Part shown: one piece after another, positions 17,115-22,408 of the stretch
How positions within the stretch are numbered: position 1 is the first letter of the stretch
Layout: each line of letters opens with the position of its first letter
The notes under the pieces: model-generated
The model's database searches: none
What the model was told of the DNA's origin: nothing
What the model saw: only the letters and a program-made list of their open reading frames with translations
Position numbers and translations under genes: made by a program
Source: an uncultured Gammaproteobacteria bacterium
GTDB lineage: Bacteria > Patescibacteriota > Patescibacteriia > UBA1558 > GWA2-36-10
Direction of reading: 5' to 3'
DNA length: 51,705 nucleotides
Assembly: GCA_964638415.1 (NCBI GenBank)
Contig: CAZWYP010000001.1
Span: 1-51,705 of the forward strand

Positions 17115-18014
17115 ATGTCATCAGACTACCAAAGCTTGGCTATGCTAGCTCAGGCCCGCGACCAAATCATTAACGCCAATCATGACGAACCAGTTAATGT
17201 CGCTGTGGTATTAGGCTCCGGTTTAGGAGAAGGAGCAAAAGAATTATTTACTTGTTGCCAATCCACCATCCTGCCTTATGCTACCATTGCCGGCTGGCCT
17301 AATTACAAAAGCATCAAGCCAGTTAAAGGCCATAAGAACCTACTGCTGCTTGGCAATTTTGTCGGCAAGCATGACAACTACCGTCTGGCTATTATGCAGG
17401 GCCGCCCCCACTATTACCAGGGCTATACTGTCCACGAAACAGTTTTCCTGCTGCGCGCCCTGATTTTAGCCGGAGCCAAAACTGTCATTCTTTGTTCTGC
17501 GGTCGGCGCCGCCAAACGCGGACGTCAGGCTGGTGAAATCGTAGTGATTTCCGATCATCTCAATCTGACTGGAGTCAATCCTTTGATCGGCATTGAAACC
17601 TCCGAGCTATTGATGAGCTGCGGTCCGCAATTTACCGACCAAAGCGAAGTGTATGACAAGCAGCTGGCTAAACATCTACATTCCTCCGGCGCTACCACCA
17701 ATTCCGCCACCTATGCCTTCATGACCGGTCCCAGCTACGAAACGCCTGCAGAGATTCATTCACTGGCGCAGCTGGGAGCATCGGTAGTCGGCATGAGCAT
17801 GCCGCTGGAAGCAATGGCTGCTAACCAGCTGGGCGCTAAAATCGGCGGACTGACGCTAATTACCAATATGGGAGCAGGTTTAGGCGGGAAGCTTTCCCAC
17901 CAAGAAGTGATTGCTATGACTGATTTGAAGCGACCTGACTTTTACTATATCTTATGGCAAGCTTTACTTGACTTGCCCAAACCGTTCTATCATCCAGAAG
18001 TTGCAGACAGCTAG
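17115..18014 (+). CDS. punA: Purine nucleoside phosphorylase (trimeric type)
   Basis: VLGSGLG, QGRPHYY, GPSYETPAEI, VGMS, ITN motifs. Confidence 0.9.
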   Translation: MSSDYQSLAMLAQARDQIINANHDEPVNVAVVLGSGLGEGAKELFTCCQSTILPYATIAGWPNYKSIKPVKGHKNLLLLGNFVGKHDNYRLAIMQGRPHYYQGYTVHETVFLLRALILAGAKTVILCSAVGAAKRGRQAGEIVVISDHLNLTGVNPLIGIETSELLMSCGPQFTDQSEVYDKQLAKHLHSSGATTNSATYAFMTGPSYETPAEIHSLAQLGASVVGMSMPLEAMAANQLGAKIGGLTLITNMGAGLGGKLSHQEVIAMTDLKRPDFYYILWQALLDLPKPFYHPEVADS

Positions 18015-18083
18015 TTTCAACGGAAGTCTCTTATACAAAAAACCGTCCTGTTCCCAGGGCGGTTTTTCCTTTTTACTAAACTT

Positions 18084-18929
18084 TTATTTAAGTAGATTCT
18101 CCCTAATCCTAATTGAATAATCTTCCACATCGCCAATCTCTTGGGAAACCTTGCTAATATTAAATTTCTCCCTGGCTTGTTCAATTGGTAAATCAGTATC
18201 CAATAATCCTGCCGACATTGCTAATTCGTCAGCATGGCCGGTTAATAATAATTCCCAAGACCAGAAGGGAAGCTTAGCCGGCGTTACCTCATTGACATGC
18301 TTAGCAATTAAAGAAGTGCAATTAGCTGTTAAAGTATTATACCACTTGGGATTAGTTGCCAAATCATTCATCTCCACCAGCATATTCCTTAACATAACTT
18401 GGGCTTTAGCGGGAGTGGTTTTTACTGGATAAAGATAAACATCATGCTCTCTAACATTAGCTCTGACTAAAATCGCATCCCGTTCATCGGCGGCAATATA
18501 CATCAAAGGATAAGTTCTGAATAATCCTTTGAAGATATTATAGACTTGCCCTTTGGTTTTTCTGGCTTCAATAGTAAGGCTTAAAAATTTGCCATCGGAA
18601 AACTCCCAGCTTAAAAAAGTATGAGCAGCATTCTTAGTTTCAGAAAAAGGCTCATTGATATACCAGACTTTAACTACTTTATCTAAGTCATAAGTCTCAT
18701 TATAATAGTTGGCAATACTCGGCTCTTCACCGGAGCTGTAGCGGAAATTACGGACATTATAAATAGTGGCTAAATTGCCGTTAAACTCCACTGTTGGCAT
18801 CACCGCTGTGTGTTCCTGCCAGTTTCCTGACAAAGGAGCCGGTAGAAAATACTGCCAAAAGGCAAAAACAGCTATTACTAAGATTAAACCGCCAAAAACG
18901 TATTTAAGTTTTATTTTTTTGAGTTGCAT
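18084..18929 (-). CDS. DUF4105/Lnb N-terminal-like exported protein
   Basis: HTFLSW, IEARK, ADERD, YNTLTANCT pattern; N-terminal TM. Confidence 0.75.
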   Translation of the reverse strand: MQLKKIKLKYVFGGLILVIAVFAFWQYFLPAPLSGNWQEHTAVMPTVEFNGNLATIYNVRNFRYSSGEEPSIANYYNETYDLDKVVKVWYINEPFSETKNAAHTFLSWEFSDGKFLSLTIEARKTKGQVYNIFKGLFRTYPLMYIAADERDAILVRANVREHDVYLYPVKTTPAKAQVMLRNMLVEMNDLATNPKWYNTLTANCTSLIAKHVNEVTPAKLPFWSWELLLTGHADELAMSAGLLDTDLPIEQAREKFNISKVSQEIGDVEDYSIRIRENLLK

Positions 18930-19000
18930 AACTTCTTAATTTTACCGTTTTATTATTAAAAAAACAATAATCCAGTTAAAATACAAAGTTATTTTAACCC

Positions 19001-19029
19001 TTGCCAAACCCAGTTTTTTCTGGTATTAT
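19001..19029 (+). promoter_or_regulatory. Promoter of the tRNA operon
   Basis: TTGCCA-17-TATTAT upstream of tRNA-Ile. Confidence 0.65.
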
Positions 19030-19052
19030 CTTATCTGTTAACTTAAAAATAA

Positions 19053-19129
19053 GGGCATATAGCTCAGTTGGTTAGAGCGCCACACTGATAATGTGGAGGT
19101 CGGAAGTTCAACTCTTCCTATGCCCACCA
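19053..19129 (+). tRNA. tRNA-Ile(GAT)
   Basis: Cloverleaf; anticodon arm CCACA-CTGATAA-TGTGG; encoded CCA. Confidence 0.95.
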
Positions 19130-19130
19130 T

Positions 19131-19205
19131 GCCGCGGTAGCTCAGTGGTAGAGCAGAGGCCTGAAGAGCCTTGTGTCGGTGGTTCGATCCCGCCCCGCGG
19201 CACCA
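19131..19205 (+). tRNA. tRNA-Phe(GAA)
   Basis: Cloverleaf; anticodon loop CTGAAGA; encoded CCA. Confidence 0.95.
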
Positions 19206-19217
19206 TTTTTTTAAAAA

Positions 19218-19294
19218 CGGGGTGTGGCGCAGTTGGCTAGCGCGCGTGCTTTGGGAGCATGAGGTCGGAGGTTCAAGTCCTCTCACCCCGACCA
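19218..19294 (+). tRNA. tRNA-Pro(TGG)
   Basis: Cloverleaf; anticodon loop TTTGGGA; encoded CCA. Confidence 0.95.
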
Positions 19295-19305
19295 TTTAAA
19301 ATATT

Positions 19306-19334
19306 TTGAACCTTTATAATATATATGATATAAT
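19306..19334 (+). promoter_or_regulatory. Internal promoter for the HTH-LAGLIDADG-like ORF and tRNA-Gly(TCC)
   Basis: TTGAAC-17-TATAAT with an extended -10 TG. Confidence 0.6.
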
Positions 19335-19355
19335 ACTATTAGTTAGTTCAATAAT

Positions 19356-20027
19356 ATGATAACTAAAAGTATAAAACAAAAAGCAATAGAATACAGAAAA
19401 CAGGGGTATTCGTATAATTTAATCTCTCAAAAGCTAGATATAGCTAAAAGCACTCTAAGCCATTGGTTAAGAGAAATTCCTTTTAATCCTAACCGAGAAG
19501 TGATAGAGCGAGTACGAGATGCTAGATTAAAATCAGCTAAATTTAAAAATGGACAGCGGTTAGATAATATAATCGCTATGAGGCTGGAAGCTATAAAAGA
19601 GCTGGGCAATATCACTAAAAGAGATCTATGGATGATGGGTATTGGACTATACTTAGGCGAAGGTTCTAAAGCATATGAATATATTAGAATCGCTAATTCT
19701 GATCCTCAGGTTATCAAAATATCTATGAAGTGGTTCAGAGAAATTTGCGGTTTAAAAAATAATAATTTCAGATTAAACCTTCATTTATATCCCGATTCTA
19801 ACATTAAAAAATCTATAAATTACTGGTCGCTCATAACAGGGCTTAGTAAAAATCAATTTGGTAAAATACAAATAGATCGAAGAATTAATAAATCAAAAAA
19901 TAAGAAAAAATTATTACCTAATGGAACGCTCCATATAATAGTAAAAAGTAATGGTAATAAAAAATTGGGGGTAAGCCTTCATAGAAAAATAATGGGCTGG
20001 ATAGAGGCCGTGGAGAATAAAATATAA
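19356..20027 (+). CDS. HTH plus LAGLIDADG-like (homing-endonuclease/WhiA-like) protein
   Basis: N-terminal HTH (GYSYNLISQKLDIAKSTLSHWL); LAGLIDADG-like helix MGIGLYLGEGSK followed by IANSDP; Lys/Ile-rich. Confidence 0.7.
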   Translation: MITKSIKQKAIEYRKQGYSYNLISQKLDIAKSTLSHWLREIPFNPNREVIERVRDARLKSAKFKNGQRLDNIIAMRLEAIKELGNITKRDLWMMGIGLYLGEGSKAYEYIRIANSDPQVIKISMKWFREICGLKNNNFRLNLHLYPDSNIKKSINYWSLITGLSKNQFGKIQIDRRINKSKNKKKLLPNGTLHIIVKSNGNKKLGVSLHRKIMGWIEAVENKI

Positions 20028-20031
20028 TCAA

Positions 20032-20106
20032 GCGGGTATGGTATAATGATTATTATGTCTGCCTTCCAAGCAGACGATACGGGTTTGATTCCCGTTACCC
20101 GCTCCA
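20032..20106 (+). tRNA. tRNA-Gly(TCC) with a non-canonical elbow
   Basis: Cloverleaf; anticodon loop CTTCCAA; D-loop AATGATTA; T-loop TTTGATT; encoded CCA. Confidence 0.9.
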
Positions 20107-20119
20107 GATCTATCAAAAG

Positions 20120-20144
20120 AACAACCCTAAAGGTTGTTTTTTTG
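20120..20144. repeat. 25-bp terminator hairpin, direct repeat copy 1
   Basis: AACAACCCTAAAGGTTGTTTTTTTG, identical to 22280-22304. Confidence 0.9.
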
Positions 20145-20981
20145 CTTTAAAATTTGTCGAGAGGGATATGAATAATTTAACTGTTCGCTATTACTTAATA
20201 AATATAAATAATCAATTAGTTTTTCATCGCTAACTAGGTCTGATGTTTCTAATAAAATAGATACTGCTTTATTTCTTATTGCACCAGAGGGTAATAATAA
20301 CAACCTATCTTTAATTAAATCATAAATCTTTTTTTTCTGCTTAGCCTTTAATTTTGAAACTATTGGTATTAGCTGTCTTAAAATTATATTAATTTCTTCT
20401 TCTGTCTTGGAATCTAACTTATTGATAAATATACTGATCAACTCATCATCTTTTTCAATCCACTGACTGGCTGTTATCAGATCATAATGATATTTACTCT
20501 TTATTATCTTTTGAAAGTCTTGGTAATTATCTTTTAAGATTTTATTAATTTCTTTTTCTAATTTATACAAAATCTTATCATTAGAATAAATAATGCCGTT
20601 GTTCCTGGTACCGGATAATTTTCCTTGGCCGGAATTATAAATAAAATCCAACCTAGCTTGGTGCTGACTAAGTAAATTTTTTATCTTTGCCAAAAATCCT
20701 TGAGACACCTCCTCTTTATGCTGATCTTTAATAAAATAATTATCTGCCGACAATTCACAGCTTATAACCGTCATCTCTAAATCCGGATAAAGTGGGTTCA
20801 TAATAGATACCACTTTATAATCATTATATACAAATTTTTTCAATTCTTTTTCTATCTCTAATAGTTCCTCATAATCATAATCCTTGCCAATGAGCTGGTT
20901 AAACGTATTAATGTTAACTTGCTGCGGGTAATTTATACCATCATGAAGCCAAAATTCAATCTGTTTTAATTTATATTTCAT
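20127..20981 (-). CDS. Hypothetical protein, 284 aa, helical C-terminus
   Basis: Long AT-rich ORF; its stop codon lies inside the terminator repeat. Confidence 0.7.
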   Translation of the reverse strand: MKYKLKQIEFWLHDGINYPQQVNINTFNQLIGKDYDYEELLEIEKELKKFVYNDYKVVSIMNPLYPDLEMTVISCELSADNYFIKDQHKEEVSQGFLAKIKNLLSQHQARLDFIYNSGQGKLSGTRNNGIIYSNDKILYKLEKEINKILKDNYQDFQKIIKSKYHYDLITASQWIEKDDELISIFINKLDSKTEEEINIILRQLIPIVSKLKAKQKKKIYDLIKDRLLLLPSGAIRNKAVSILLETSDLVSDEKLIDYLYLLSNSEQLNYSYPSRQILKQKNNL

Positions 20982-21083
20982 AGAATAATCTTATCATAAA
21001 TTAATAATAACTTAATCTTGACTAAAAAATAATTTTATATTATAACTTACCTAATTTTCTAGTTCTTTAAAAAGGAGATTACT

Positions 21084-22055
21084 GTGGCTATTCTAGTGCT
21101 AACAAATAAATGGGATCCTCACTCGGACTCAGTGATTGAACAAATAGAGCACCTGGGCGCTGAGGTGGTTAGAATTAACACTGAAGACATTGGGCAAAAT
21201 AAACTCTCATGGCAGCTAGCTGTTGATGTTCCGCTTATTACAACGCCGGAAAACAGAGTGGTCTCTACCAATAATATCCGTGTTGTATACTTGCGTCGAA
21301 CACCAAAAGTTGCAGTTGCCAACCTTGATTCTAAATACGAGAAGTTTGTCCAATATGAATTTTCGGTTTTTACCGAATCACTGGAGACAACTTTACCCGA
21401 TGTAACTTGGTTTGATCATCCAATCCACAGAAGTTATGCAGACAATAAAATACGACAATTAACCAAAGCTAAGCAGGTTAATCTTGTTGTTCCACCAACA
21501 TTGGTGACAAATGATTTCGAGCAAATCAAAAAATTTATCTCGCTTGGCAAGGTCGTTTACAAAACCTTGTATGCTCCTGTGATTGATTACGGCCAGCAAG
21601 GCACATCTGTTGTCCACACCACACTACTTGATCCCAAACGGTTGATGGAATACGGAGAATTGATTAGCTCCTGTCCGGGAATTTTTCAGTCTTTTGTTGA
21701 AAAAGCTTATGATCTGAGAATTCATTTCATCAACGGGCACATAATACCAATTAAAATTGATTCTCAAAAATTTGAAGAGTCGATAATTGATTGGCGGAAG
21801 GCGAATTTCAGAAAACTGAACTATGAGATTGTGGAAATTCCACAGGATATTAAGACGAAAATCTCAATCTTCATGCAAGAATTGAATTTGCGGCTCGGAA
21901 TATTTGACTTCGCTGTAACAGCAAATGGAGAATATGTTTTTCTGGAGCTAAATCCTGATGGAAATTGGCTATGGATAGATTCGTTTATCAACTACCAAAT
22001 CAGTCAAAAAATTGCTGAACAGCTCGTCTCCTCACATGAGAGAGAAAGGAGGTGA
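21084..22055 (+). CDS. MvdC/MvdD-type ATP-grasp peptide maturase (graspetide synthetase)
   Basis: GTG start after an AAGGAG SD; DNKIRQL..A, PPTLVTND, VVYKTL, IFQSFVEKAYDLRI, DWRK, FLELNPDGNWLW motifs. Confidence 0.9.
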   Translation: MAILVLTNKWDPHSDSVIEQIEHLGAEVVRINTEDIGQNKLSWQLAVDVPLITTPENRVVSTNNIRVVYLRRTPKVAVANLDSKYEKFVQYEFSVFTESLETTLPDVTWFDHPIHRSYADNKIRQLTKAKQVNLVVPPTLVTNDFEQIKKFISLGKVVYKTLYAPVIDYGQQGTSVVHTTLLDPKRLMEYGELISSCPGIFQSFVEKAYDLRIHFINGHIIPIKIDSQKFEESIIDWRKANFRKLNYEIVEIPQDIKTKISIFMQELNLRLGIFDFAVTANGEYVFLELNPDGNWLWIDSFINYQISQKIAEQLVSSHERERR

Positions 22056-22334: not shown

Positions 22335-22408
22335 GCGGGATTAGTACATCGGTAGTACGCGTGCTTCCCAAGCATGAGAGGCGAGTTCGACTCTCGTATC
22401 CCGCTCCA
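22335..22408 (+). tRNA. tRNA-Gly(CCC)
   Basis: Cloverleaf; anticodon loop TTCCCAA; encoded CCA. Confidence 0.93.

Follow-up and report, generated by a model that had tools for sequence, protein, structure and literature searches.

P0001, a probable free-standing homing-endonuclease gene docked on a transfer RNA gene, and its LAGLIDADG-like relatives in the Patescibacteria

The stretch of DNA analysed here in its full length of 51,705 nucleotides (the "window") comprises positions 1-51,705 of the forward strand of contig CAZWYP010000001.1 (GCA_964638415.1), from the genome of a member of the Patescibacteria, and the feature of interest occupies positions 19306-20106. At its centre is an open reading frame (ORF) of 223 amino acids (aa), designated P0001, which is wedged between two complete transfer RNA (tRNA) genes and encodes an N-terminal helix-turn-helix (HTH) domain and a C-terminal domain resembling that of the LAGLIDADG proteins. 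We consider it probable, at roughly two chances in three, that P0001 is a homing-endonuclease gene of the free-standing kind, with a target that takes in the conserved 5' portion of one particular tRNA gene. LAGLIDADG domains are known from homing endonucleases, from maturases and from domesticated regulators such as WhiA, and an earlier interpretation of this DNA from its letters alone (the sequence-only reading) had left the choice between a free-standing selfish element and a domesticated regulator of the tRNA operon. The former is favored by a patchy, multi-copy distribution that includes broken copies, by the existence of empty sites, by the resident character of the adjacent tRNA and by the retention of residues at catalytic positions; the same distribution and the same residues make the latter the less attractive choice.

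The positions that P0001 and its homologues occupy in their respective genomes are highly constrained. Two independent samples of loci were compiled, the first consisting of 27 loci from species-representative genomes and 2 from close relatives of the window's genome, and the second of 29 loci from genomes sampled evenly over the phylum. A same-strand tRNA gene lies directly 3' of the ORF in 25/29 and 24/29 of these loci, respectively (49/58 overall after the removal of duplicate loci), and the docked tRNA starts within tens of bases of the end of the ORF and often overlaps it, as compared to 5 of the 1179 ORFs of at least 100 aa (0.4%) that end that near a same-strand tRNA in the genome to which the window belongs. 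The geometry is similar regardless of which tRNA is involved: a conserved C-terminal Trp codon is found 20-33 nt (mode 31) before the +1 position of the tRNA in 34 of 45 loci, and the tRNA contains the end of the frame in over half of the loci, with a recurrent class that stops 10 nt inside it, where U8-A9-G10 is read as TAG. The tRNA species is also linked to the phylogeny of the proteins. All 18 of the Gly-TCC-linked proteins fall in one clade (FastTree support 99), as do all four of the Gln-TTG-linked proteins (support 99) and 13 of the 14 Arg-TCT-linked proteins (support 97). Across the tree, 17 changes of tRNA label are required, as compared to 35.5 with shuffled labels, and none of 200 shuffles gave a number as low; since kin share labels, this test demonstrates clustering rather than co-evolution.

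Within its own genome P0001 is one of five tRNA-docked ORFs. Three of the others are ordinary genes, i.e., for a VTT/DedA-type membrane protein, a TPR protein and a class II aminoacyl-tRNA synthetase. The remaining one, P0272, which lies outside the window (G000:C4:107524-108189, equivalent to L086:1025-1690), is the unrelated-looking gene for a canonical LAGLIDADG endonuclease with two motifs (PF14528, 38.1 bits against a cut-off of 22.5), and its stop codon is located 15 nt inside a tRNA-Leu(GAG) gene that is followed by genes for tRNA-Ala and tRNA-Val. A comparison by hhalign of the C-domain alignment of the P0001 family with the single P0272 sequence superimposed motif on motif only (probability 2.8%, E=0.016). 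Because both P0001 and P0272 are docked in this manner, at least two LAGLIDADG-type lineages use the 5' edge of tRNA genes in this organism.

The distribution of the family is patchy at every level that was sampled. In the genome that contains the window (1.07 Mb, 99.6% complete) there is a single copy, and a search of that genome with P0001 as the query detected no paralogues besides P0001 itself. Homologues exist in 2 of 40 close relatives. One of these relatives, of the same order, carries its homologue (50% identical) at the same Pro-Gly(TCC) site; the other, of the same family, carries a homologue of another clade beside tRNA-Trp and is the only one of 24 same-family genomes to hold any homologue. 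The Ile-Phe-Pro-Gly gene order into which P0001 is inserted is common to 12 of the relatives' loci that were scanned, and 13 relatives have empty sites, with Pro-Gly spacers of 0-100 nt; no remnants of the gene were detected in 16 empty-site loci of relatives (best E=1.0). On the larger scale of the phylum, 94 of 400 sampled genomes (24%) contain members of the family, in 1-7 copies each and patchily within families and genera, and at the level of this survey some of the copies have in-frame stops or are split (e.g., G098:C1:769453-770119 and a copy on G425:C42). The presence and absence of the unit can be compared most directly between members of one genus, in which G058 has ~750 bp, consisting of an upstream element and the ORF, between the stop codon of the flanking gene and the +1 position of tRNA-Gln, whereas G110 and G194 have 15-28 nt in the same interval, with flanks that are 75-78% identical to those of G058. 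No target-site duplication was detected at the junctions of G058 as compared to G110. The neighborhood of the homologues and their presence or absence in sister genomes were two of the checks that the sequence-only reading had proposed, and the outcomes, a strong association with tRNA genes and a patchy presence, support its selfish-element interpretation.

At the window's own locus, the left flank of the insertion site consists of three resident tRNA genes (19053..19294, plus strand), namely tRNA-Ile(GAT) at 19053-19129, tRNA-Phe(GAA) at 19131-19205 and tRNA-Pro(TGG) at 19218-19294 (64.4 bits with Rfam model RF00005), and the right flank is tRNA-Gly(TCC) at 20032-20106 (63.9 bits with RF00005). 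All four genes are on the plus strand and were detected by ARAGORN as well as Rfam, with Rfam scores of 64-77 bits. P0001 (19356..20027, plus strand, ATG start) is the only long ORF between the Pro and Gly genes; its stop codon ends 4 nt 5' of tRNA-Gly, and a scan of that interval detected no terminator-like site. The GC content over the ORF is 0.30-0.35, as compared to about 0.38-0.43 upstream, and the AT-rich stretch extends to about 21000, across the next ORF, which is on the minus strand. The tRNA-Gly gene of the window shares 78-91% identity with its counterparts in relatives without the ORF and 67-79% with those that lie beside homologous ORFs, including only 67% identity to the tRNA-Gly of the protein's nearest neighbor in the tree. 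The tRNA-Gly gene thus follows the host lineage and not the ORF, and is therefore resident, whereas the promoter and ORF are the unit that comes and goes. As an observation in its own right, this tRNA-Gly is unusual in having a D-loop AAUGAUUA and a T-loop UUUGAUU, by which the G19-C56 pair of the elbow is replaced by A19-U56 with both sides changed; unlike the window's gene, all 17 of the 17 tRNA-Gly(TCC) genes of relatives that were compared have GG and TTCGA.

An internal promoter-like site, TTGAAC-17-TATAAT with a TG upstream (19306..19334, plus strand), marks the left end of the insert. Taken singly such a match carries little information, as a consensus scan found 6 promoter-like sites in AT-rich DNA where 5.8 are expected by chance, but the motif recurs among relatives of P0001: 12 of the 16 genes of the Gly-TCC clade have TTGAAC (with up to one mismatch)-17-TAnnnT in the 70 nt before their start, as compared to an expectation of 0.024 per 70 nt. 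This recurrence supports the view that promoter and ORF travel together. In 9 of the 12 motif-bearing genes 6-7 nt separate the end of the -10 box from the ATG (21 nt in the window), which suggests that the mRNAs are leaderless. A second promoter-like site, TTGCCA-17-TATTAT with an extended TG (19001..19029, plus strand; 10/12 matches in the consensus scan), lies 5' of tRNA-Ile and is likely to be the promoter of the resident Ile-Phe-Pro-Gly operon. After tRNA-Gly there is a hairpin, AACAACC / GGTTGTT followed by a run of T (20120..20145), which was read from the sequence of the plus strand and which the scan lists on the minus strand; it is a terminator that closes the operon and is probably bidirectional. 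In these respects the sequence-only reading, which had described an AT-rich ORF of 223 aa between the Pro and Gly genes with a dedicated promoter, intact flanking tRNAs and no terminator before the tRNA, holds for the locus as we see it, the terminator after tRNA-Gly being the sole one.

Two more familiar kinds of insertion were considered for this unit and rejected. An intron-encoded endonuclease is at odds with the completeness of both tRNAs, and no intron family at E<=0.1 or other structured RNA was detected in positions 18900-20300, where the four tRNAs alone pass the Rfam thresholds. An insertion sequence or transposon was rejected on the grounds that no repeats flank the P0001 unit, that there is no duplication of the target at the G058 junctions, and that matches to transposase families are weak and confined to the level of the HTH; no integrase or transposase gene accompanies the unit.

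The C-terminal domain (residues 80-223; 19593..20024, plus strand) is very probably of a divergent LAGLIDADG type in which the residues at catalytic positions have remained intact. When a profile built from an alignment of 84 diverse relatives was compared with the proteins of the PDB, the best match was I-DmoI (E=1.6e-4), on LAGLIDADG motif 2, with E102, G103 and K105 of P0001 aligned to E117, G118 and K120 of I-DmoI and the similarity confined to about 60 residues. The stretch aligned to this motif includes the single LAGLIDADG-like helix GIGLYLGEGSK (residues 95-105) that the sequence-only reading had singled out. The motif helix and the catalytic-position residues span residues 88-105 (19617..19670, plus strand), and the GIGLYLGEG segment ends in a conserved acidic residue followed by Gly, as is expected of the motif helix of LAGLIDADG endonucleases, in which that residue is the metal-binding D/E. 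Among the 84 relatives G103 is invariant, and E102, K105 and N114 are each conserved in at least 90%.

Structural modeling by AlphaFold2 (AF2) was informative for this domain when it was folded alone. In the model of the whole protein the predicted local distance difference test (pLDDT) score was below 50 at the motif helix, and a wide search with VIA returned no LAGLIDADG protein for that model, giving only HTH and RidA/DegV-like entries; this result is superseded by that for the C-domain by itself (residues 80-223, folded with an alignment of 83 rows), which was modeled with a pLDDT of 96.2 and a predicted template modeling (TM) score of 0.89. With the latter model, LAGLIDADG proteins made up 9 of the 13 top VIA matches, at Z values of 5.2-6.7 with 81-93 residues aligned, root-mean-square deviations of 2.9-3.6 Å and the whole domain spanned; these are the Tli intein endonuclease domain, WhiA (two entries), I-DmoI, E-DreI, I-Tsp061I, I-Vdi141I, I-CeuI and PI-PfuI. 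The same fold recurs in the ESM Atlas at TM scores of 0.85-0.94, mostly fused to HTH_23, and a phage cluster there that has been named automatically as a LAGLIDADG homing endonuclease has a TM score of 0.86 to the C-domain; a search of the named ESM Atlas clusters by features gave no usable match. The domain is also predicted to pair with itself. A homodimer model reached an ipSAE (a score of predicted interfaces) of 0.53, as compared to 0.00 for the best of three controls, with at least 93% of contacts common to the runs and a partner pLDDT of at least 78. Of proteins with solved structures, 20 of 30 whose structure is a pair of one chain attain this score, as compared to 1 of 23 whose structure is a single chain. 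The contact between the two subunits is predicted to form by symmetric packing of the motif helix (residues 89-102) against its own copy. From this model we would expect that the protein most likely acts as a homodimer, with the proviso that the score may reflect likeness to solved LAGLIDADG homodimers, i.e., likeness rather than proof.

The N-terminal HTH domain (residues 1-45; 19356..19490, plus strand) is of the resolvase/transposase type and is joined to the C-domain by a long alpha-helix, predicted by AF2 at a pLDDT of 64-84 for residues 47-83 (19494..19604, plus strand). The HTH had been proposed from the sequence of P0001, where it lies below the Pfam threshold (HTH_28, 19.9 bits against a cut-off of 25), and weak HTH-type matches are all that Pfam, NCBIfam and PHROGs return for this protein. 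The relatives give it firmer backing: HTH_23 is matched by 74 of the 84, and HTH_23, HTH_28, HTH_7 and HTH_SB each by between 26 and 74 of them. Structural matches by VIA (Z 5.0-5.8) are to the HTH domains of serine recombinases, IstA and Tc3. A word search yielded more than 700 homologues, mostly from metagenomes of Patescibacteria and at identities of 55-71%, and an exhaustive search at E<=1e-3 yielded 3203 representatives of clusters formed at 50% identity, 1207 of which reach 1e-10. No homologues were detected by tblastn in 50,697 phage records. Two further features of the family can be mentioned in their own right. Homologues at loci L004, L009, L010, L012, L017, L020, L023 and L027 come from contigs of metagenome-assembled genomes titled Gammaproteobacteria, Planctomycetia, Omnitrophota or delta proteobacterium, and these are either mis-binned contigs of the Candidate Phyla Radiation (CPR) or instances of the family's spread beyond the Patescibacteria. 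In the survey of the phylum, many matches cover the C-terminal domain only (approximately positions 80-219 of the profile) in open frames of 200-250 aa (e.g., G058:C4:343446-343841 and G227:C1:404506-404871), which suggests that the N-terminal domain of some relatives is of another kind or has diverged strongly.

We envision the following mode of spread for the homing endonuclease that P0001 probably encodes. The mobile unit, of ~0.73 kb, would consist of the TTGAAC-17-TATAAT promoter and the ORF, and would have entered the short Pro-Gly spacer of the resident Ile-Phe-Pro-Gly operon such that its right end abuts the +1 position of tRNA-Gly(TCC). The homodimer, aided by its two HTH arms, would recognize DNA that includes the conserved 5' part of tRNA-Gly(TCC) in genomes without the insert and would cut the empty site near the 5' edge of the tRNA, after which repair of the break from an occupied allele would copy in the promoter-ORF unit. 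Occupied alleles would be immune to further cutting through replacement of the upstream half-site by the insert. The tRNA itself would remain intact and be transcribed from both the operon promoter and the unit's own promoter, by which the latter may help to keep the displaced tRNA expressed, and cleavage by RNase P at the 5' end of the tRNA would determine where the mRNA ends on its 3' side. As a target of the homodimer, a near-palindrome that crosses the Pro/Gly junction was considered and set aside as weak on inspection by eye.

Several observations weigh against the interpretation of P0001 as a LAGLIDADG-type homing endonuclease, beginning with the assignment of the domain itself. P0001 has no match to PF00961, PF03161, PF14528 or PF14527 at E<=10 and no LAGLIDADG match in NCBIfam, no LAGLIDADG model is among the 25 most frequent Pfam families of the 84 relatives, and Foldseek searches of the PDB with the whole-protein and C-domain models gave nothing at E<=1e-3, the top entries being LysR, OmpA-like and IspF structures. 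The Z values from VIA are middling, with unrelated alpha/beta folds scoring alongside (DegV at 7.1, YjgF at 6.2), and the model has helices between all four of its strands instead of two hairpins; given this strand order with interposed helices, the domain is therefore at best a divergent LAGLIDADG. The fold check proposed at the outset has pointed to a LAGLIDADG-like domain through the profile, the VIA matches and the predicted dimer, for a divergent member that neither Pfam nor Foldseek places. With regard to mobility, proteins from different host classes are intermingled in the Gly clade, where P0001 has nearer neighbors than the homologue from its own order, at inner supports of 82-88 (FastTree); with inner branches so weakly supported, the conflict between the gene tree and the host tree is only suggestive. 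Contigs of four independent sludge or bioreactor DNA runs contain the occupied allele only, and in unchanged form (18000-21500), and none of them joins across the empty site, though contigs cannot reveal rare empty alleles. As for the target, occupied and empty tRNA-Gly genes do not differ consistently in their 5' parts, and the upstream half of a site that spans the tRNA 5' edge varies between genomes; a homodimer is expected to prefer a near-palindrome, so that the proposed reading of the target is unexplained in this respect.

Among the alternatives, the one that survives best, which we nevertheless regard as unlikely, is that P0001 encodes a domesticated LAGLIDADG-HTH protein that no longer cuts DNA and that binds the tRNA gene, the promoter region or the precursor RNA, thereby regulating or assisting the expression or maturation of the adjacent tRNA in the manner of WhiA or of a maturase. 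WhiA is a conserved, single-copy transcription factor, a catalytically dead monomer with two degenerate LAGLIDADG domains and a C-terminal HTH. It resembles P0001 in having a LAGLIDADG scaffold fused to an HTH and is among the structural matches of the C-domain (Z 6.7 and 5.6); moreover, the tight linkage of each clade to one tRNA species is what might be expected of a dedicated factor, and conservation of the Gly clade at 55-71% identity across classes points to purifying selection. Such a factor is difficult to reconcile with the distribution described above, in which the family is missing from most genomes of the phylum and from 38 of 40 close relatives, is present in several copies in some genomes and includes broken copies, and in which relatives with the same tRNA operon manage without the gene. 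In further contrast to WhiA, the P0001 family has one LAGLIDADG domain instead of two, has the reverse order of domains and retains the Glu and Lys of the catalytic positions.

We give little credence to a second alternative, that P0001 is a passenger gene which has been moved to or retained at tRNA genes for reasons unrelated to its own activity, e.g., for strong co-transcription with tRNA operons or through the action of another recombination system at tRNA 5' flanks, and whose product acts elsewhere, perhaps in defence or in a restriction-like cutting of foreign DNA. Ordinary genes also end beside tRNAs in this genome, as noted above for the DedA-type, TPR and aminoacyl-tRNA synthetase genes, and in the same-family relative G001 the Pro-Gly spacer (556 nt, L044:1576-2131) holds an ORF of ~180 aa that is unrelated to P0001, so that the Pro-Gly spot evidently accepts other inserts. 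The link between protein clade and tRNA species and the fixed offset of 20-33 nt to the +1 position, however, point to a sequence-specific targeting that the protein itself encodes, and this unit has no integrase, transposase or repeats by which another system would have moved it. The docking of P0272, a second and canonical LAGLIDADG gene, is also better accounted for by homing that is driven by nucleases. The weakest alternative, an ancient gene of the tRNA operon that is inherited vertically, has been lost many times and is no longer mobile, draws on the exclusive recovery of the occupied allele in the four metagenome runs and on inner branches too weak to prove transfer, but is very improbable in view of the many independent losses that it requires (the only homologue in the 24 same-family genomes being of another clade), of a same-order homologue that at 50% identity is no closer to P0001 than homologues from other classes (53-56%) or from unrelated metagenome contigs (up to 71%), and of the several paralogues that lie at different tRNAs within single genomes.

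Homing endonucleases are known from introns, inteins and the intergenic regions of phage genomes, and for the one that we propose here the class of mechanism is a familiar one and the novelty lies in architecture, niche and scale; in the literature searched we found no description of tRNA-docked HTH-LAGLIDADG genes in CPR bacteria. Of the systems available for comparison, I-DmoI and I-CreI are similar in that the motif helix ends in an acidic residue and Gly and is then followed by Lys, and, according to the model, in the helix-to-helix interface of the dimer; the structural similarity of the C-domain of P0001 to endonucleases of this type is Z 6.6 with 18% identity by VIA. These two types differ in being encoded by introns, in having no HTH and in the canonical alpha-beta-beta-alpha-beta-beta-alpha connectivity of their fold, where in the P0001 model every strand is followed by a helix and an additional beta-alpha unit is present. 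P0272 shares the genome of P0001 and the same docking geometry on a same-strand tRNA, and is distinguished by two motifs, a match to PF14528 above threshold and no HTH, with a relationship to the P0001 family that is only marginally alignable. Insertions within rRNA genes of the CPR encode single-domain, homodimeric LAGLIDADG endonucleases such as I-ShaI, and the report on these insertions mentions tRNA zero times (PMC11270868). The I-ShaI type and the P0001 family occur in the same phylum and have in common a single LAGLIDADG domain, a homodimeric state (predicted for P0001), a conserved stable-RNA gene as the target and a patchy distribution. The I-ShaI type, however, is found inside insertions of 16S and 23S rRNA genes and is a protein of about 19 kDa with no HTH, whereas members of the P0001 family are free-standing, lie outside the RNA gene at its 5' edge, and have an N-terminal HTH, a promoter of their own and no Pfam LAGLIDADG match. 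A parallel in location is phage T4 SegB, a free-standing GIY-YIG endonuclease encoded among clustered tRNA genes, which recognizes a site of 27 bp that includes a conserved tRNA TpsiC motif of 11 bp and which spreads with flanking DNA into genomes that do not have it (PMC2330249). Like segB, P0001 is a free-standing gene between tRNA genes; SegB differs in its GIY-YIG class, in its residence in a phage genome, and in having neither a fixed abutment to the tRNA +1 position nor a radiation of clades by tRNA species.

A few other features in and near the locus deserve brief mention. Downstream of the operon, an ORF of 284 aa on the minus strand (20127-20981; GC 0.24-0.31) converges on the tRNA genes with its stop codon inside the terminator hairpin (20120-20138); it has no Pfam match and may be another foreign gene. 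It is followed by an ORF of 323 aa on the plus strand (21084-22055), 5' of a second glycine tRNA gene, tRNA-Gly(CCC) at 22335-22408, with matches to ATP-grasp families that are below threshold (MvdD pre-ATP-grasp, 26.1 bits against 27; GSH-S_ATP, 22 against 23). Contigs of one of the metagenome runs, X2, have 19 differences from the window in positions 18000-19154 (those listed lie at 18144-18474, for the most part at intervals that are multiples of 3) and are identical to the window over the ORF, tRNA-Gly and 1.4 kb downstream (19435-21500), a pattern that may represent a recombination boundary at the tRNA cluster. In G058, the genome with the tRNA-Gln-docked homologue, locus L078 (reverse strand) contains a perfect 9-bp palindrome, AACCACGAT-ATTA-ATCGTGGTT, ~20 nt upstream of the docked ORF and immediately before its ATG. 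This palindrome, which is absent from the window's copy, may be an operator or an RNA hairpin.

If P0001 is a homing-endonuclease gene, as we believe to be probable, it adds to the known selfish elements a very large family for which there is no curated profile, with 3203 clusters at 50% identity and members in about a quarter of the sampled Patescibacteria genomes, and it defines a distinct niche at the 5' edge of the tRNA gene, external to the mature RNA, in which every clade keeps to a single tRNA species. The family would also account for a recurrent puzzle of annotation, that of "HTH domain protein" genes wedged into the tRNA operons of tiny genomes. A broader view, which we offer tentatively as a possibility that falls short of an even chance, is that HTH-LAGLIDADG homing endonucleases have radiated across the phylum, each clade being re-targeted to the 5' edge of a different tRNA (Gly, Arg, Lys, Gln, Val, Met, Asn, Trp and others), and that their unit would be made to exploit tRNA biology. 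In such a radiation a portable and often leaderless promoter would keep the displaced tRNA transcribed, the frame would often borrow its stop codon from the tRNA, as in the case of the near-universal U8-A9-G10, and cleavage of the co-transcript by RNase P would set, and probably limit, the expression of the nuclease. The location of stop codons within the tRNA and of an RNase P site where the mRNA ends raises a testable question, namely how elements of this kind keep their expression low, and the family as a whole is a testable system for the jumps in specificity that endonucleases make from one target to a related one. Compact meganuclease scaffolds could also come from this family, with natural targets that are readable from the genome, and, were the radiation to prove true, it would amount to a library, provided by nature, of small dimeric meganucleases that carry an accessory HTH and whose targets are both known and diverse.

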